Shown: in pieces, positions 1 through 14,587 of the stretch
Layout: each line of letters starts with the position of its first letter
Numbering within the stretch: position 1 is the first letter of the stretch
Assembly: GCA_050125095.1 (NCBI GenBank)
Contig: JASFEA010000074.1
Coordinates: 1 to 15,971 of the forward strand
Reading direction: 5' to 3'
DNA: 15,971 nucleotides
DNA from: a bacterium
GTDB lineage: Bacteria; Arandabacterota; Arandabacteria; Arandabacterales; JALGWA01
Made by a program: the position numbers and the translations under genes
The notes under the pieces: model-generated
The model's database searches: none
Told to the model about the DNA's origin: nothing
Seen by the model: the letters and a program-made list of their open reading frames with translations, nothing else

Positions 1-62
1 TAATCGACGGTATCGAGGTTTCGATATCGGAGATTGTCGAGATTTACCAGGAAGAAGCGTAA
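1..62 (+). CDS. flgD: 3' fragment of probable flagellar hook capping protein FlgD (partial)
   Basis: Frame from position 3 reads IDGIEVSISEIVEIYQEEA* (TAA 60-62), like the FlgD C-terminal 'V.G..v.l.dI..i' strands. It lies upstream of the operon protein and flgE, the usual flgD slot. Only 19 codons are visible. Confidence 0.65.
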   Translation, partial: IDGIEVSISEIVEIYQEEA

Positions 63-85
63 TGGCGCCTGAAGGAGGTGAAACT

Positions 86-460
86 GTGCAGCGAATAGGC
101 GGGATTGGCAGCCACCCCGAAGTGGCCCGGCAAACGGGGCCGGGGGTACCGCCCGCGAAAGCGGCAGAGGGTTTCAAGGACGTCCTTGCCGAAATCACGC
201 AGGCCGATGGCGTCAAGTTCTCCAAGCACGCGTTAGAGCGCATCTCCGCGAGGGGCATGTCGTTTGATCGCGCAAGTATGGAGAGGCTCAATAACGCCGT
301 TGAAGTGGCCGGCAGCAAGGGCGCCAGCGAGTCTCTGGTGCTCATGGACGAGCTGGCCCTGATCGTCAGCGTCAAGAACAAGACCGTCATCACGGCGATG
401 CCGAGCACGGAGACGAAAGGGAATGTGTTTACGGCGATCGACAGCGCGATCGTCGCGTGA
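86..460 (+). CDS. Flagellar operon protein, TIGR02530/Flagellar_put-like (function unknown)
   Basis: Motifs FKDVL...VKFSKHALERISARG...AGSKGASESLVLMDELALIVSVKNKTVITAM...GNVFTAIDSAIV match this family, which typically lies between flgD and flgE. GTG at 86 is preferred over ATG at 62 because of the strong SD AAGGAGGTGA at 72-81. Confidence 0.88.
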   Translation: MQRIGGIGSHPEVARQTGPGVPPAKAAEGFKDVLAEITQADGVKFSKHALERISARGMSFDRASMERLNNAVEVAGSKGASESLVLMDELALIVSVKNKTVITAMPSTETKGNVFTAIDSAIVA

Positions 461-473
461 GAAATGAACAGAC

Positions 474-536
474 GGGCCGGACCTCTTGGTAGGAGGCCCT
501 TCCGCTGCCGAACGACTGAGGCAGCGCTGAAGGAGG
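474..536 (+). promoter_or_regulatory. Putative structured cis-regulatory RNA element (two hairpins) in the flgE leader, abutting the SD
   Basis: Hairpin 1: GGGCC(474-478)/GGCCC(495-499) plus CCT(482-484)/AGG(491-493). Hairpin 2: CGCTGCC(503-509)/GGCAGCG(520-526) with loop GAACGACTGA. SD AGGAGG at 531-536. Function is inferred. Confidence 0.55.
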
Positions 537-546
537 AGAAGAAGAG

Positions 547-2469
547 ATGTTGATGTCACTTTACACAAGCGTTTCGGGAATGAGATCGAACCTTACGGCG
601 ATCAACGTTTTCGGAAACAACATAAGCAACGTGAATTCCGTCGCGTTCAAGGGCGGCCGCGTGACCTTCAAGGAAACGCTGGTCCAGACCCTTCGCGGCG
701 CGCGCATGCCGGACGGCAACCTGGGCGGCGCAAATCCCGTTCAGATGGGGCTCGGCATGGGCATAGGCAGCATAGACAGCGTGCTCTCGCAGGGCGTGCT
801 CCAGAGTACCGGTCTCATGACCGATCTCGGCATTAACGGAGAGGGTTTCTTCATCGTCAATGACGGCAGGAGAGACTATTACACCAGGGCCGGGGCGTTT
901 ACATATGACAGCGTAGGCAACTATCTCGACCCGACGACCGGCTACATCGTCCAGGGACGCATGGCGGACCAGGACGGCAATATCGGAGCCAGCGCGCCCA
1001 TCGGGAACATCCAGCTCCCGTTCGGCATCAAGATCCCGGCAAGGGCCACTGCTGAACTCACGCTCGGGTGCAACCTCGACGCCTCGGCGACGACGTCCAC
1101 GGCCACGCTTTCCGACGCCGGGACCACGGGTATTGACCTCGTTAACGGCCTGGCGTCCAACGGCGCGGGCGGCACGCATACCATCACCGTAACCGGCGTC
1201 AACGCCACCCACAGCACGGCCACCGGCTCCAATCTGCTCGACCCTGCCGGGCTCGACGGAACCGAGACGCTCGGCGCTCTTGGCGTCACCGACTTCTCGG
1301 ATTTCACGCTCAGCGTTGACGGCGGCACTGCCGTCGCGGTAACGGGGCTCTCCGCGACCTCGACGGTTCAGGATCTCATAACCGCCATCAACAGCGCGGC
1401 TCCCGGCGTCACTGCTTCTCTCGATTCGGGTGAAGTGGTGCTCACGAGAGTCTATGCGGGCGACGGCACCGTTTACAACGTCGCCACGTCCGACGGCGTC
1501 GACGGCAATATCTCGAGGCAGATATTCGGAGCCGCCGGCGGATCGCCCTTTGTTGCCAATAACGGCACCGCGAGCACCCTGGCCGCCGAGGACGTGTTCA
1601 CGCCGACCGGCAGGACGCCGCTTGCAGCCGCTTCCATGAACCTGGTTGCCGATTCCATTACGGGCCTTATCACGGGCGTAGCCGGCATCGGGGGTTCGGG
1701 AGTGGAAGTGACGGCTACCGGCGGTCTCGCAGCCGGCACGGCGGTCATCGATACGGCCGCGACCGAGCATTACACATCAGTCATCACATACGACAGCCTG
1801 GGTGTCTCGCATAATCTCACTCTCAAGTTCTCGAGGTCCCCGGTTGCCAACGAGTGGTACTGGGAGGCCTCGCTCGACGGAGAAGAGGTAATCGCGAGCG
1901 GGCAGTCGGGCACAGTGACGTTTTTTGAAGACGGGTCCCTCAATCAGTTCGCGTTCGATAACGGCGCCACGGCCATCGCATTCGATCCGGGCACCGGCGC
2001 GGACGCGGTTCAGATTTCGATGGACGCGGGGACCGGTGGAGGATTTCAGGGAATAACGCAGTTCGCTTCTCCGTTCAGCACGACGGTGAGGGCGCAGGAC
2101 GGCTATGAGATGGGCAACCTGATTGACGTCGCCATCGACGGCACAGGCATCATCTCGGGTGTCTTTTCCAACGGGCTCACCCGGGCACTGGCCCAGATCG
2201 TCCTGGCCAAGTTCAACAATCCCGGCGGTCTTGAAAGGGTCGGCGAGTCGCTCTTCGCCGAGTCAAGCAACTCCGGTCTGGCCATCAAGGGGGATCCGGG
2301 CGACGTGGTCTTCGCGTCGATCTCATCCGGCACTCTCGAGATGTCCAATGTCGACCTTGCTGAGGAATTCGTGGACATGATTGTCGCTCAGCGTGGTCTT
2401 CAGGCAAACGCCAGAGTGCTGACCGCAAGTGACGAGATGCTGTCGGAGGTAGTGAACCTGACAAGGTAA
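547..2469 (+). CDS. flgE: Flagellar hook protein FlgE, long form (640 aa)
   Basis: N-terminal SLYTSVSGM...GNNISNVNSVAFK, DLGINGEGFFIV, YTRAGAF, YDSLG, QDGY, and C-terminal LEMSNVDLAEEFVDMIVAQRGLQANARV. SD at 531-536. Confidence 0.96.
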   Translation: MLMSLYTSVSGMRSNLTAINVFGNNISNVNSVAFKGGRVTFKETLVQTLRGARMPDGNLGGANPVQMGLGMGIGSIDSVLSQGVLQSTGLMTDLGINGEGFFIVNDGRRDYYTRAGAFTYDSVGNYLDPTTGYIVQGRMADQDGNIGASAPIGNIQLPFGIKIPARATAELTLGCNLDASATTSTATLSDAGTTGIDLVNGLASNGAGGTHTITVTGVNATHSTATGSNLLDPAGLDGTETLGALGVTDFSDFTLSVDGGTAVAVTGLSATSTVQDLITAINSAAPGVTASLDSGEVVLTRVYAGDGTVYNVATSDGVDGNISRQIFGAAGGSPFVANNGTASTLAAEDVFTPTGRTPLAAASMNLVADSITGLITGVAGIGGSGVEVTATGGLAAGTAVIDTAATEHYTSVITYDSLGVSHNLTLKFSRSPVANEWYWEASLDGEEVIASGQSGTVTFFEDGSLNQFAFDNGATAIAFDPGTGADAVQISMDAGTGGGFQGITQFASPFSTTVRAQDGYEMGNLIDVAIDGTGIISGVFSNGLTRALAQIVLAKFNNPGGLERVGESLFAESSNSGLAIKGDPGDVVFASISSGTLEMSNVDLAEEFVDMIVAQRGLQANARVLTASDEMLSEVVNLTR

Positions 2470-2495
2470 TGAACCTTTGAAGGATGGTGGTCAGA

Positions 2496-3443
2496 ATGGC
2501 TGAGGACCCGAAGAAGGAAGAAGCCAAGCAGAAATTGAGATTCTTCAAGAACGGTAAGGACAAGGCTGAGGGCGAAGCCCCTGAGGCTCAGGACTCGACC
2601 GCTCAGGCGGTTGCGACGGAGGAGACGCCGAGGGAAAAAGCAAAGGCAAACGCCCCGTCCGCCGCCGCGGACTCCGGGGCCGAGGAGGCCGGGCCCGAGG
2701 CTGAAAGGCCGAAGGCGGAGGCCGGAGAGCCCGACGCGGATGCGGACGAGCCCAGGGCGGCCGCCCATGGGCGGAAGCCTGCTGCCGAGGACGCCGATGC
2801 CGAGGCCGATGACGCGCCGGCCGGGGACGCTCCAGCAGACGGAGCGCATAAGCCGAGACGGCGCGAGAGAGTACAGGCGCAGGAGTCCGAGCCGGAGAAG
2901 AAGGAAACTGTGATGTCTCAACTGCTTCCCAGTCTCACTCTGGGCTTCCGGACCCTGGTCATTCTGGCCATCATCACTGCCGATGCGTTCGCTGCCTACA
3001 TGCTTACTACTAAGGTCATTGCACCCAAGCTCATAGAAACGAAGATAGTGGACCTCCGGTCAGAGATCAGCCAGTTACCGCCTGAAGGCGGCGTGCTTCC
3101 CAGCGAGAAGCCTCCGAGGCCGGCCTTAGGCCCGGAATCCGTCGGGAAGATGTTCCAGGTAAAGGACATAGTCGTGAACCCGTCGGGCACTAACGGCACA
3201 AGATATCTCTGCACCACGGTCGCATTTGAAATAACCAATCCCATGGTGGAACAAGAGGCGACGGCGCGCGAGGCGCAGGTAAGGGATCTTCTGATCGAAA
3301 TCCTGGGCCGAAGGACCGTGCCAGAGCTCAGCAGCCTCGAGATGCGGGACTACATCAGGGAAGAGATAGAAACATCCGTGAATACGCTGCTCACGAGCGG
3401 CGAGATCGATGGAGTTTATTTCTCGAACTTCGTTCTTCAGTAA
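2496..3443 (+). CDS. fliL: Flagellar basal-body associated protein FliL with long acidic N-terminal extension
   Basis: Single TM segment (LVILAIITADAFAAYML) followed by FliL domain (IVVNPSGTNGTRYL...QVRDLLIEIL...LRxEI-like...GVYFSNFVLQ*), directly upstream of fliM. Start could be 2484, 2496 or, less likely, 2909/2912. Confidence 0.9.
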   Translation: MAEDPKKEEAKQKLRFFKNGKDKAEGEAPEAQDSTAQAVATEETPREKAKANAPSAAADSGAEEAGPEAERPKAEAGEPDADADEPRAAAHGRKPAAEDADAEADDAPAGDAPADGAHKPRRRERVQAQESEPEKKETVMSQLLPSLTLGFRTLVILAIITADAFAAYMLTTKVIAPKLIETKIVDLRSEISQLPPEGGVLPSEKPPRPALGPESVGKMFQVKDIVVNPSGTNGTRYLCTTVAFEITNPMVEQEATAREAQVRDLLIEILGRRTVPELSSLEMRDYIREEIETSVNTLLTSGEIDGVYFSNFVLQ

Positions 3444-11474: not shown

Positions 11475-12260
11475 ATGATGGAACGCGATCGGGACCGCCG
11501 GGAAGGCGGGGGCTGCGGTCCGGCTGTGATGGACCGGGACGAAGCGGTGCGCGAGTTGATGTGGCTCGTCAAGTGCGTCGCCAGGAGCACAGCCGGGAGC
11601 CTCCCGGATTCGGTTGACGTCGAAGATCTCATCGGCGCCGGCGCCGTCGGGTTGATCCAGGCCGTTGAGAACTACGACCCCGCGCGAGGCGCGAATCTCG
11701 AAACCTATGCCAGGTACAGGATAAGGGGCGCGATACTGGATGAGTTGAGAAGGGGAGACCGGCTTCCCCAGGGAACCAGGGCCAAGCTCAAGAAGGTAGA
11801 GCGCGCGGTTGAGGCGTTGGAACTCAAGACGGGAAGGTACCCCACGGACGACGAGATCGCCCTCGAGGCGGGACTTGCGGCCGAGGATGTGCCAGTTCTC
11901 TTCTCGGCCGCGGCGGCGGCGGACCTCTATTCTCTGGAAGAGGTGTTCGAGTCAGCCAGCGGCGAGGCCAGGCTGGATCTGGGCGAAATCAACCGGGAGA
12001 CACCGGACCCGCTCAGCAGGCTCGAGCGCAAAGAACTGGAAAGGAAGCTCGTCCGCGCGATCAGGGACCTGCCGCGGACCGAGAAAATAGTCCTCAGCCT
12101 CTACTACTACGAGGGCCTGAGGATGAGGGAAATCGGGGAGGTGCTCGGAATAAGCGAGTCGCGAATCTCCCAGATCCACTCGCGGGCCGTGCTTCTGCTG
12201 AGGGGGAAGCTGAGGGCGCGCGTATGGGCAGGTGACCGGGATGGACCGGATAGACTTTGA
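11475..12260 (+). CDS. fliA: RNA polymerase sigma-28 factor FliA/WhiG
   Basis: LPDSVDVEDLIGAGAVGLIQAVENYDPARG..LETYARYRIRGAILDELR, GRYPTDDEIA, LSLYYYEGLRMREIGEVLGISESRISQIH. Start uncertain (11475/11478 or 11526/11529). Confidence 0.94.
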   Translation: MMERDRDRREGGGCGPAVMDRDEAVRELMWLVKCVARSTAGSLPDSVDVEDLIGAGAVGLIQAVENYDPARGANLETYARYRIRGAILDELRRGDRLPQGTRAKLKKVERAVEALELKTGRYPTDDEIALEAGLAAEDVPVLFSAAAAADLYSLEEVFESASGEARLDLGEINRETPDPLSRLERKELERKLVRAIRDLPRTEKIVLSLYYYEGLRMREIGEVLGISESRISQIHSRAVLLLRGKLRARVWAGDRDGPDRL

Positions 12261-12447
12261 GAGTTCCAGCGCCGTTGAGAGAAGCGAGCGTATACGCGAA
12301 GCGGAGAGGGCGCGCGGGGATAAAGGAAGGCAACAGCGCGAGAAGCGGAAGCGGCGCGTGAGACGAAGAGGGAAGCATGAGGATGCTGAGGCCGAACACG
12401 GGGGAGAGGGGAAGAAGACAGGCAGCAACCTCGACATAGAGGCCTGA
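12241..12447 (+). CDS. Small highly charged hypothetical protein (68 aa) ending GSNLDIEA
   Basis: Fills the gap between fliA and the PilZ gene (stop 2 nt before the next ATG). Purine-rich coding strand and a C-terminal G-x-x-L-D-I-x-A motif. Confidence 0.65.
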   Translation: MDRIDFESSSAVERSERIREAERARGDKGRQQREKRKRRVRRRGKHEDAEAEHGGEGKKTGSNLDIEA

Positions 12448-12449
12448 CA

Positions 12450-12878
12450 ATGGAAGAGAAGAGCGAAAGAGAACTGGTGGACAGGGAGTTTGTGAGGGTC
12501 CCGACGTCCATAGAGACCAGGCTGGTACTGGTCGATCCCAGCGGTCTTATACCTCATGACGGCTGGGTCAAGGGTGAGATAGTGGAAATCGGCGGCGGTG
12601 GCGCGAGAATACGGCTGGCCTTCAAGGGCGAAGTCGGCGACGCCGTAAGCGTGCGCTTCCTCTTCCCGGACACCGAAGAGGAAATGACGATGTCCGGGCG
12701 GGTAGTCAACGCGTGGCGGGAGGAGGGTCTCACCAAGGTCTGCGTGAAATTCGTGGGCGTTTGTGAAGAAGAGACCAAGCGCCTTCTCACATATGCCTTC
12801 AGGGAACAGATCCGCGAGTCCAAGAGGCAAAAAGCCCCCGGGCCCCCTGAGGCCGGAGGACAATTAGATGAAGATTGA
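12450..12878 (+). CDS. Stand-alone PilZ-domain protein (flagellar brake-like C-terminal domain)
   Basis: RxxxR motif (REFVR), variant second motif EIGGGG, GRVV strand, CVKF, and terminal helix YAFREQIRE similar to YcgR/DgrA-type PilZ domains. Confidence 0.85.
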   Translation: MEEKSERELVDREFVRVPTSIETRLVLVDPSGLIPHDGWVKGEIVEIGGGGARIRLAFKGEVGDAVSVRFLFPDTEEEMTMSGRVVNAWREEGLTKVCVKFVGVCEEETKRLLTYAFREQIRESKRQKAPGPPEAGGQLDED

Positions 12879-13695
12879 ACTCATAACTGACGATATTAGA
12901 CCTGCGGGACATACAGTCGAATACGACGGCAATGTCGAAATCGTGGGCACGGTCAAGTCCGGCGCGCGCCTGGAAGTCAACGGTGACATCGGCATCTTCG
13001 GCAATGTCGAGGACGCCGACATAGTTGCCGCCGGAAACGTCATGATTGACGGCGGTTTTCTCGGAACAGGCGGAGGCCGTATAGCCTGCCACGGCGGTTT
13101 CAAGGCCAGGTTCGTGCAGGGACAGCGCATCGAGGCCGGCGGCGACGTGAAGGTCGCCAAGGGCCTCATCTCGAGCACAGTCTATGCCTCGGGACGCGTG
13201 CTGGTCGGCAAGTCGGGCGGAATCGTCGGAGGAGAGACACACGCCTACCGCGGCGTGGAGGCCGGGAGCCTCGGAAGCCCGAGACCGGTGACGACGGTCA
13301 TCAAGGTCGGGATCGACCCTGCGGTGAGCATGCGCATCGAGGAGCTCGAGCAGGAGGCGATGAGCCTGGCGGCGAAGAGAATACGCTATATCAAAGACCT
13401 GTCCTTCGTGGGGAGTCAGGAAGGCGCAGGGTCGGAGGAGGCGATGAGGGACCTCACGGCGGCAAGCAGTGCCGTGCAGGCGGAGCTCGTCTCCCTTGGG
13501 GAAGAGATAATGAAACTGAGGATGGCCAGCGAACTCGCGAAGGACGCGACGATTGCCGCGCGCGAGCAGACCCATCCTCCCCTGGATGTGGCCATCTGCT
13601 TTTCGAAGATAATAAACGAATCCAGGACAGGACCTGTCGTGTTCAGGCTACTGGACGATCGTATCGTATTGGACACTTGGAACCTGGGGTGGTAA
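12868..13695 (+). CDS. DUF342/FapA-family protein, C-terminal beta-solenoid part only
   Basis: Repeating G-[ND]-V-x-I-x-G-x-V units (YDGNVEIVGTVKSG.RLEVNGDIGIFGNVEDADIVAAGNVMIDGG), GGIVGGET.A, LGS....TVIKVGIDP, then a coiled coil. SD GGAGGA at 12855-12860. Confidence 0.82.
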   Translation: MKIELITDDIRPAGHTVEYDGNVEIVGTVKSGARLEVNGDIGIFGNVEDADIVAAGNVMIDGGFLGTGGGRIACHGGFKARFVQGQRIEAGGDVKVAKGLISSTVYASGRVLVGKSGGIVGGETHAYRGVEAGSLGSPRPVTTVIKVGIDPAVSMRIEELEQEAMSLAAKRIRYIKDLSFVGSQEGAGSEEAMRDLTAASSAVQAELVSLGEEIMKLRMASELAKDATIAAREQTHPPLDVAICFSKIINESRTGPVVFRLLDDRIVLDTWNLGW

Positions 13696-13699
13696 ACCA

Positions 13700-14587
13700 A
13701 TGGAGAATAATTCAAAAGACGACAAGAACCTGGAGAAGTTTGCGGTAAACATCCCTCCCTTCCCGAGAGCGGCCCAGCAGGTCATGGGTATGCTCAGGGA
13801 CCCGAGAGTGCAGATACCCAAGGTGGCTGAGATCGTCGCGCTCGACCAGGGTTTCGCCACCAAGGTTCTGCGCATGGCTAACTCGGCCTATTTCGGGCTG
13901 CCCCGGAAGGTGTCCAATGTGACGGAGGCCCTCGTGCTCCTGGGATGGGCCAATGTGAGAATAGTCCTGATCTCGGCATCGGTGGGCCCGATTCTCTGTC
14001 GCGGTCTCAAAATCTACGGCATGGAGGAAGGAGTGCTCTGGGAGCATTCGGTCGGCTCGGCATTCGCCGCGCAGATGCTGAGCAAGGACCTCGCTCCTGA
14101 TGTATATAACATGTCTTTCACCTCCGGCCTGCTCCACGACGTCGGCAAGGTGGCCATAGATATGCAGCTCAGGGGCGAATTGCGGAAGCAGTTCATCAAC
14201 CTCCCGAGAACCTCAAGCCAGGATATTGCGGAGCGGGAAGTCGTCGGTTATACGCATGCCGAGATCGGCGAGTACCTCTGCAGAAGGTGGAATCTCCCCG
14301 AGGAGATAGCCGAGGCCATCAGGTTCCATCATGAGCCTTCGGGCGCCGAAGGCGCGCTGGCGGGAGTGGTCGCGGCGGCGGATCTCATTGCCAATACCAT
14401 CCTCAAGGATGGCCGCGAAGTCACCCTGGCCGATATGGGAACCGCCCCCCGGGGTACCTTCATGCCCGGCGCGGACCTGCTCGTGAGAGTGACAGACGAG
14501 CTTCCGGCCATGATCGCCTCTGCGCGCGAGCTGCTCGGCGGGACCTCCGAGGTGGTCTCAGTGGGCGCCGACGGCGAGGAGAAATAG
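13700..14587 (+). CDS. HDOD-domain protein (HD superfamily)
   Basis: IPPFPRAA, DQGFATKVLRMANSAYFGLPRKVSNVTEALVLLG, LWEHS, FTSGLLHDVGK, EREVVGYTHAEIG, WNLPEEIAEAIRFHHEP. Confidence 0.93.
   Translation: MENNSKDDKNLEKFAVNIPPFPRAAQQVMGMLRDPRVQIPKVAEIVALDQGFATKVLRMANSAYFGLPRKVSNVTEALVLLGWANVRIVLISASVGPILCRGLKIYGMEEGVLWEHSVGSAFAAQMLSKDLAPDVYNMSFTSGLLHDVGKVAIDMQLRGELRKQFINLPRTSSQDIAEREVVGYTHAEIGEYLCRRWNLPEEIAEAIRFHHEPSGAEGALAGVVAAADLIANTILKDGREVTLADMGTAPRGTFMPGADLLVRVTDELPAMIASARELLGGTSEVVSVGADGEEK

Follow-up and report, generated by a model that had tools for sequence, protein, structure and literature searches.

The question raised by the locus examined here is what occupies the spacer ahead of a flagellar hook gene in a bacterium of the phylum Arandabacterota. 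The stretch of DNA analysed, referred to throughout as the window, comprises 15,971 nucleotides at the start of contig JASFEA010000074.1 (assembly GCA_050125095.1) and carries a flagellar operon, as indicated by the listing of its open reading frames (ORFs) and by family profile searches. In this operon the gene for a protein of family TIGR02530 is followed by flgE, encoding the hook protein, and the upstream stop codon TGA (458–460) is separated from the flgE start codon ATG (547–549) by 86 nt. An initial annotation, made from the sequence alone, had proposed that this spacer holds a structured RNA of two hairpins with built-in alternative pairings to the Shine-Dalgarno (SD) sequence. The element at 474–526 is a member of a widespread cis-acting RNA motif in the 5′ leader of flgE; the proposal of a conserved, structured leader RNA is borne out by covariation and by matches across TIGR02530-flgE spacers, whereas the proposed SD alternatives are not a conserved design.

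The minimum free energy (MFE) fold of positions 461–549 computed with RNAfold consists of exactly two hairpins, at 474–499 and 503–526 as originally proposed, with an energy of −28.6 kcal/mol, and comparative evidence confirms both. Hairpin 1 has an outer helix GGGCC/GGCCC, an internal loop in which GGA lies opposite a single A, and an inner helix CCU/AGG; in hairpin 2 the 7-bp stem CGCUGCC/GGCAGCG closes the loop GAACGACUGA. The z score is −1.86 (9 of 200 shuffled sequences are as stable), the minus strand of the same region is about equally foldable (z = −1.87), and single-sequence folding is modest evidence that proves little alone. The sequence confirms that no U-tract follows either hairpin, and a scan of positions 300–700 finds no terminator-like and no sigma-70-like site on the plus strand, by which an intrinsic terminator is excluded. 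A kink-turn, a sigma-28 promoter and a sigma-54 promoter were also rejected, each being a poor fit by eye to the consensus sequences and involving bases that are not conserved.

The comparative evidence for the element is far beyond chance. Seven genomes, two from the window's genus and five others from its order, align with the window across the spacer, giving a set of eight close relatives in which the flanking coding DNA is 71–90% identical and the segment GGGCYGGACCUCUU-N2-3-AGGAGGCCC is invariant. Among these relatives the stem of hairpin 2 is kept through exchanges of C-G for G-C and of U-A for C-G, and its loop keeps the bases G, A, G, G and A. That the spacer is better conserved than the surrounding genes points to a functional element.

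A covariance model built from those eight sequences only (R1) was used to follow the element further; the genome samples contain one genome per species, many of them incomplete metagenome-assembled genomes (MAGs), and the E-values of covariance models are rough. R1 matches 10 of the 18 genomes analysed from the window's phylum. Among 401 diverse genomes, 83 encode TIGR02530, and retrieval of the DNA 3′ of the gene gave 86 loci, 59 of which match R1 at E ≤ 0.01 (62 matches, three loci having two copies); the 27 non-matching loci were inspected by eye, and most of those viewed carry a recognisable variant of hairpin 1. In a second set of 80 loci, obtained from a genome scan with a TIGR02530 alignment, R1 matches 75 at E ≤ 1 and 69 at E ≤ 0.01, all of them on the gene strand and directly after TIGR02530. 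This second set covers 10 phylum-level groups besides the window's own (taxa as deposited), the carriers being Bacillota (Clostridia, Negativicutes, Peptococcaceae, Paenibacillus), Actinomycetota (Solirubrobacteraceae and one unclassified Actinomycetota MAG), Bdellovibrionota, Desulfuromonadales/Geobacteraceae, Chloroflexota, Zixibacteria, Eisenbacteria, Ignavibacteria, Omnitrophota and Armatimonadia. Among the cultivated species named for these loci are Sporomusa silvacetica, Pelosinus propionicus, Paenibacillus koleovorans, Malonomonas rubra and Lucifera butyrica. The initial annotation was therefore correct in placing GGACC..GG and GA..GA..GA patterns at this position in other phyla, R1 matches occurring in at least 10 phyla. 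A strict scanner finds hairpin 1 in 133 of 164 spacers.

The element is a sense-strand RNA structure maintained by compensatory changes. In an alignment of 75 sequences fitted to the model (A6), 95.3% of cells are paired compared with 77.6% in shuffles, none of 500 of which reaches the observed value; 194 cells are changed on both sides compared with 51 expected, and the covariation score is 0.434 compared with 0.169. Sliding the partner by one to three columns lowers pairing to 40–55%. RNAalifold applied to a plain, unfitted MAFFT alignment of 30 sequences returns the same 15 pairs, 12 of them with compensatory changes. The covariation in hairpin 1 lies in the outer helix and the third inner pair, and in hairpin 2 all seven pairs are changed on both sides. 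The G-U pairs, together with the location of all matches on the coding strand, indicate that the structure exists as sense RNA.

The consensus hairpin 1 consists of a 5-bp outer helix, a 3×1 internal loop (GGN opposite R) and an inner helix that opens with two near-invariant C-G pairs flanking the loop, kept in 74 and 74 of the 75 sequences. GGN is preceded by a pyrimidine whose partner is the second purine following the inner helix (U-A 31, C-G 26, U-G 11, other 7). The GG of the loop is invariant, and in 132 leaders the third base of the triplet is most often A (92), followed by U (26), C (12) and G (2). Hairpin 2 occurs in 110 of these leaders; its stem is free to vary and its loop consensus is GA-NY-GA-YN-GA, with GA..GA..GA present in 71 of the 110 loops. 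It has been lost from the other 22 leaders, which belong to Actinomycetota, low-GC lineages, Omnitrophota and others, and its loss in several lineages marks hairpin 1 as the core of the motif.

The distance of the motif is fixed to the flgE start and not to the upstream stop codon. Hairpin 1 ends 41–81 nt before the flgE start in 94 of the 108 leaders that have hairpin 2, and 20–33 nt before it in 18 of the 22 that lack hairpin 2, whereas the distance from the TIGR02530 stop codon to hairpin 1 ranges from −14 to 187 nt (quartiles 7, 14 and 41). A second covariance model (R2), run over 151 whole genomes, finds additional copies elsewhere. In genome G098 one copy lies in the gap between a flgF-like gene and flgG (L192:1501–1589, minus strand) and another between flgD and a flgE-like gene of at least 833 amino acids that precedes TIGR02530 (L208:989–1044, plus strand), with no TIGR02530 gene adjacent to this copy; the spacer following the TIGR02530 gene of this genome (L080) has no motif. 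In genome G112 a copy (L195:1501–1591, plus strand) stands after flbB, ~2.7 kb upstream of that genome's TIGR02530-flgE copy, and ahead of an ORF of at least 442 amino acids that has no family match and is possibly fliK. The fixed distance to flgE and the additional copies indicate that the element belongs to the leader of the downstream hook- or rod-type gene rather than to the 3′ end of TIGR02530.

Three further observations concern individual copies. In two related genomes the whole two-hairpin unit is duplicated in tandem before flgE (L044:1816–1866 and 1949–2001; L061:817–867 and 682–734). At locus L069 (genome G075) hairpin 1 begins 14 nt upstream of the ORF end and contains the TIGR02530 stop codon, so that terminating ribosomes must open the hairpin there. 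A strong two-hairpin copy of 36.5 bits on contig 24 of genome G051 (L207:994–1079, minus strand) follows a gene for an EF-hand protein and has no recognisable flagellar gene downstream.

The initial annotation knew of no named RNA family for the element and called for a scan against Rfam, and that scan finds no family match for the window or for 32 homologous loci. At the gathering threshold Rfam 15 gives no match in the window and in 20 homologous loci; at E ≤ 10 positions 380–640 give only three matches to small nucleolar RNAs, which are noise, and 12 diverse loci give none at E ≤ 1. Full-text literature searching found no published description of the motif, although subscription journals and PMC articles outside the search may hold one. 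The nearest counterpart by setting is Termite-flg (RF01729; Weinberg et al. 2010, PMC2864571), likewise a candidate cis-regulatory structured RNA upstream of flagellar genes that was found by comparative analysis and described there as being of unknown mechanism. Its seed alignment, however, contains neither a GGNCC..GGRRG hairpin nor a GA..GA..GA loop and has no conserved block in common with the present motif (PMC2864571), from which it differs in sequence and architecture; it matches neither the window nor the 32 homologous loci at any threshold used, and the occurrences given in that account are confined to the termite gut, whereas the present motif is found in at least 10 phyla. Mimicry of helix 8 of signal recognition particle (SRP) RNA was also considered, the SRP apex of the window genome, GGACC-GGAA-GGUAGC (L103:1490–1610, minus strand, contig 29), resembling the GGACC...GGAGGC of hairpin 1. 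The loops differ, the 3′ strand having 4 nt (AGCA) in SRP RNA and 1 nt in hairpin 1, and the N position being paired in SRP RNA and unpaired in hairpin 1; RF00169 gives no match to the element at E ≤ 10, and the resemblance is attributed to chance.

Flagellar operons are known riboswitch targets, and a small riboswitch in which the hairpin 1 internal loop and the hairpin 2 loop form a pocket for a motility signal, for example a cyclic dinucleotide, would account for conserved unpaired nucleotides in two adjacent hairpins and for the tandem copies in L044 and L061. We consider it highly improbable: hairpin 2 is absent from 22 of 132 leaders in several lineages, which does not fit an aptamer whose elements are all retained, no Rfam riboswitch matches, and an expression platform is lacking, there being no plus-strand terminator and no conserved occlusion of the SD.

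The occlusion of the SD was analysed separately, since alternative pairings with it had been part of the original proposal. The two alternatives that were pointed out, CCUUC:GAAGG and CCUCUU:AGGAGG, do exist in the window, where forcing them costs 1.4 and 4.7 kcal/mol, respectively, relative to the MFE of 461–560. A self-contained translational switch, in which mutually exclusive folds expose or hide the flgE SD, perhaps driven by ribosomes terminating upstream, could draw on the small cost of the first of these, on the median stop-to-hairpin distance of 14 nt, and on the prediction that the SD is paired with a probability of at least 0.6 in 71 of 126 leaders (median 0.655). However, the mean SD pairing in these 126 leaders is 0.616 with the native upstream sequence and 0.649 with a dinucleotide-shuffled one (Wilcoxon p = 0.25), the partners of the SD differ between species, and the complementarity of linker and SD is lost even within the order. 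The stop-to-hairpin distance moreover spans −14 to 187 nt, and a switch leaves the conserved loop nucleotides unexplained, which together make it very unlikely. As judged from sequence, the conserved parts are the hairpin 1 internal loop, the hairpin 2 loop and the distance to the flgE start.

The distribution of the motif follows that of the TIGR02530 gene. Of the 18 genomes analysed from the window's phylum, TIGR02530 is encoded by 10, and these coincide with the 10 in which R1 finds the RNA. The 151 diverse genomes include 66 flagellated ones, 35 with TIGR02530 and 31 without, and 85 others; at E ≤ 1e-5 R2 matches 28 of the 35, none of the 31 and none of the 85, so strong matches are confined to genomes that encode TIGR02530. 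Weak R2 matches in genomes without TIGR02530 number 13 (best E 4.4e-5). Inspection of seven of these genomes (G057, G102, G111, G121, G008, G120 and G150) found no flagellar gene beside any match; the inspected matches are probably due to chance, with the possible exception of that in G102, which lies at a contig end.

This distribution bears on two explanations that dispense with TIGR02530. In the first, the hairpins are a passive processing or stability signal for general RNases (RNase III, Y, E or J), marking a cut and then protecting the flgE 5′ end without any dedicated protein. Operon-internal processing with 5′ stabiliser hairpins is known from E. coli papBA, Rhodobacter puf and B. subtilis cggR-gapA, where, as here proposed, a cut in a polycistronic mRNA gives a stable downstream segment for a product needed in excess. 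An operon-internal leader of a high-copy subunit, with two stable hairpins at a fixed position just upstream of the ribosome-binding site and neither a terminator nor a promoter-like site, fits such a signal. A simple stabiliser needs only structure, yet the GG of the internal loop, the flanking C-G pairs and the hairpin 2 loop are conserved from phylum to phylum while the stems vary, and such RNases occur everywhere, yet the motif is restricted to genomes with TIGR02530; the three known cases rely on general RNases and are not known to have either a conserved, phylum-spanning sequence motif or a dedicated neighbouring RNase-like gene. We regard this explanation as rather unlikely. In the second, another flagellar-stage protein, such as a hook-stage chaperone, FlgD, FliK or ribosomal protein S1, binds hairpin 1 and couples flgE translation to assembly. 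Any RNA-binding regulator would be compatible with the conservation of the internal loop and its constant distance from the ribosome-binding site, and the copies before flgG and before the ORF after flbB suggest a hook/rod-stage regulon, but among the proteins profiled (TIGR02530, FlgEFG and CsrA only) none except TIGR02530 matches the pattern of presence and absence, and on balance such a partner is unlikely.

CsrA is the third such candidate. The targets of CsrA and FliW, B. subtilis hag and C. jejuni flaA, have GGA-containing leader hairpins near the SD, and their control is possibly tied to the state of assembly. In a leader of this kind, CsrA dimers would span a GGA in hairpin 1 and the SD, itself rich in GGA, and FliW would lift the repression, as it does for flagellin mRNAs. 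The window has GGA at 479–481, at 492–494 and in the SD, its genome has two csrA genes and fliW, csrA is found in 32 of the 35 TIGR02530-encoding genomes, and the post-transcriptional control of a high-copy flagellar subunit is common to both systems (PMC4894983). On the other hand, the target is flagellin in that case and the hook gene in this one, the GGN lies in an internal rather than an apical loop, and its third base varies as given above and is therefore not always that of GGA. Furthermore, flagellated genomes that lack the RNA carry csrA at a similar frequency (23 of 31), and two genomes with strong RNA matches, G045 (97% complete) and G051 (100% complete), have no csrA at E ≤ 1e-5; the motif thus follows TIGR02530 and not csrA, and control by CsrA appears quite unlikely.

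The TIGR02530 protein, listed as 'function unknown' (PMC13277936), itself offers a link to RNA. An AlphaFold2 (AF2) model has a confident core at residues 50–132 (predicted local distance difference test score, pLDDT, 86–95), and in the family H56 and R64 are invariant and R60 nearly so. The first 13 rows of a VIA-align search are RelE/ParE/HigB/YafQ-type toxins, Cami1 and T4 RegB (Z 4.8–5.5; 60–100 residues aligned, with 100 residues for RegB). Pfam DUF4258, which has been placed in the BECR RNase superfamily (PMC11980606; bioRxiv 10.64898/2026.08.28.747851), matches 55 of 84 TIGR02530 members at E ≤ 1 (best E 2.6e-4). With hhalign, TIGR02530 aligns to a single RegB sequence at P = 0.0032 and to a profile of seven RegB sequences at P = 2.5e-4 (probability 43%), compared with P = 0.084, 0.43 and 0.36 for three unrelated T4 proteins. 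The alignment places H56, R60 and R64 on RegB H48, R52 and R56, within the motifs K-F-S-x-H-A-x-x-R-x-x-x-R-x-I of TIGR02530 and K-Y-S-x-H-x-x-x-R-x-x-x-R-x-I of RegB; His48 is called catalytic in a review of T4 (PMC3014915). A search of the TIGR02530 profile against PDB sequences gave nothing meaningful, and the ESM Atlas gave no usable match. From sequence profiles and the predicted model, TIGR02530 may be a distant relative of the RelE-type RNases and T4 RegB, and a putative ribonuclease.

The phage enzyme RegB, a small basic RNase, has a RelE/YoeB-like fold, and the helix motif that carries its catalytic His aligns with the invariant motif of TIGR02530. RegB by itself recognises GGA, and it cuts GG^AG near ribosome-binding sites (PMC3014915; PMC1702504), and, as these sources describe them, its targets carry the GGA triplet in intergenic positions beside those sites. 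The systems differ in that RegB inactivates many early phage mRNAs by cuts inside the SD and needs S1 and a single-stranded A-rich context, whereas the present motif is one structured site per leader of a cellular operon, upstream of the real SD; the similarity of the proteins, as seen in sequence and model, is remote. That a protein resembling RNases is co-inherited with an exposed GG(A) triplet makes TIGR02530 the best candidate for the reader of the RNA.

From the observed structure, conservation, position and co-occurrence with TIGR02530 we infer the partner of the RNA, its cleavage and the direction of the effect. Hairpin 1 would be a protein recognition site, probably for TIGR02530, through which the flgE leader is cut or clamped and the output of hook protein is set, a reading that we hold tentatively and at somewhat less than an even chance. 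The initial annotation had likewise raised control by a protein or by cleavage as what could set the output of the hook subunit. With hairpin 1 as the recognition module and TIGR02530 its most likely reader, the protein would most likely cut in the GGN loop. The inner hairpin and hairpin 2 would then cap the newly formed 5′ end of the freed flgE transcript, and synthesis of the abundant hook subunit could run separately from that of the upstream operon products and exceed it. As a close second, the protein may act without cutting, as a clamp that tunes 30S loading.

Several observations weigh against the assignment of TIGR02530 as an RNase that reads hairpin 1. Regarding the association, 7 of the 35 TIGR02530-encoding genomes have no strong R2 match, no motif is recognised by eye in a few loci (L031, L040, L074, L080 and L090), and, the motif and the gene being neighbours, their joint occurrence may stem from a common origin of the operon and not from an interaction; the mutual information between TIGR02530 columns and the states of GGN, R and Y gives weak signals only, which are confounded by phylogeny. 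Regarding the protein, the fold match is weak, as Z of ~5 is below the caution level of 8 given for the tool and may reflect only a common arrangement, and Foldseek returns nothing significant (best E 0.21). The DUF4258 matches score 12–20 bits against a cut-off of 25 and mostly cover only the first 16–18 profile positions, the RegB alignment is a motif of 21 columns, and the second catalytic residue of RegB, His68, has no invariant counterpart in TIGR02530. Regarding the site, RegB prefers single-stranded GGAG followed by an A-rich sequence and is inhibited by structure (PMC1702504), whereas the GGN here lies within a structured hairpin with no A-rich tail and ends in A in only 92 of the 132 leaders.

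A more specific form of the same proposal, which we consider doubtful but worth stating, is that TIGR02530 is a domesticated endoribonuclease of RegB/RelE type dedicated to hairpin 1, the two forming an ancient pair in at least 10 phyla. It would process the leaders of hook-stage genes, flgE and sometimes flgG or another, and so uncouple hook synthesis from the operon; its disordered N-terminus, which resembles that of flagellar export substrates, may tie its cytoplasmic level to the state of assembly.

The coordinates of the features discussed are collected in the table below.

Table. Features of the flgE leader and related genes (positions in the window unless a contig of the window genome, G000, is given)
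Feature	Position	Strand	Evidence or remarks
TIGR02530 / Pfam Flagellar_put gene	62..460	+	132 aa; NCBIfam TIGR02530 111.9 bits (cut-off 83.2); PF12611 match
Hairpin 1, motif core	474..499	+	Fold; order-wide invariance; covariation in outer helix and third inner pair
Hairpin 1, outer helix (5 bp)	474-478/495-499	+	
Hairpin 1, 3×1 internal loop	479-481 and 494	+	GGA opposite A494
Hairpin 1, inner helix CCU/AGG	482-484/491-493	+	
Hairpin 1, apical loop	485-490	+	Variable
Hairpin 2	503..526	+	7-bp stem 503-509/520-526, varying and covarying; conserved loop GAACGACUGA at 510-519
flgE Shine-Dalgarno region GAAGGAGGAG	529..538	+	Predicted mostly unpaired in the window genome; pairing probabilities 0.09-0.35
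flgE (hook protein, 640 aa), motif in its leader	547..2469	+	TIGR03506 245.9 bits (cut-off 70.25); FlgE models also match
csrA, contig 46	G000:C46:7360-7509		
csrA, contig 8	G000:C8:7377-7529		Directly after fliW

The genes of the operon are, in order, the TIGR02530 gene, flgE, a FliL-domain gene, fliM, fliN, fliO, fliP, fliQ, fliR, flhB, flhA, flhF and fliA, and 3′ of fliA stand PilZ, FapA and HDOD genes followed by a flgF-like gene and flgG. The flgE spacer had been described as the largest between positions 1 and 14587; its length of 86 nt stands, but the gap between fliA and the PilZ gene (12261–12449) is longer at 189 nt, unless a 71-amino-acid ORF with a GTG start (12232–12447, no Pfam match), which is unsupported, is a gene. 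The FliL-like protein (2484–3443) has 319 amino acids, of which only residues 224–319 form the FliL domain, the long N-terminal part being without a family match. The genes for PilZ-domain, FapA (DUF342) and HDOD/HD proteins that follow fliA at 12450–14587, within the flagellar cluster, suggest a control module linked to cyclic di-GMP.

Bacteria that carry their flagellar genes in one long operon need about a hundred hook subunits per flagellum and few copies of the neighbouring products, a disparity whose basis is little understood beyond the enteric and Bacillus models. The conservation of a structured leader in Bacillota, Actinomycetota, Bdellovibrionota and candidate phyla suggests that post-transcriptional control at the hook gene is ancient and general, and the motif is a clean candidate for a new Rfam family. 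Its exclusive link with TIGR02530 gives a protein of 'function unknown' a testable function, and the resemblance to RelE and RegB suggests that a toxin-type RNase was recruited for the control of a housekeeping gene. If the reading of TIGR02530 as a domesticated enzyme is true, the pair would constitute a toxin-derived, assembly-coupled RNA switch.

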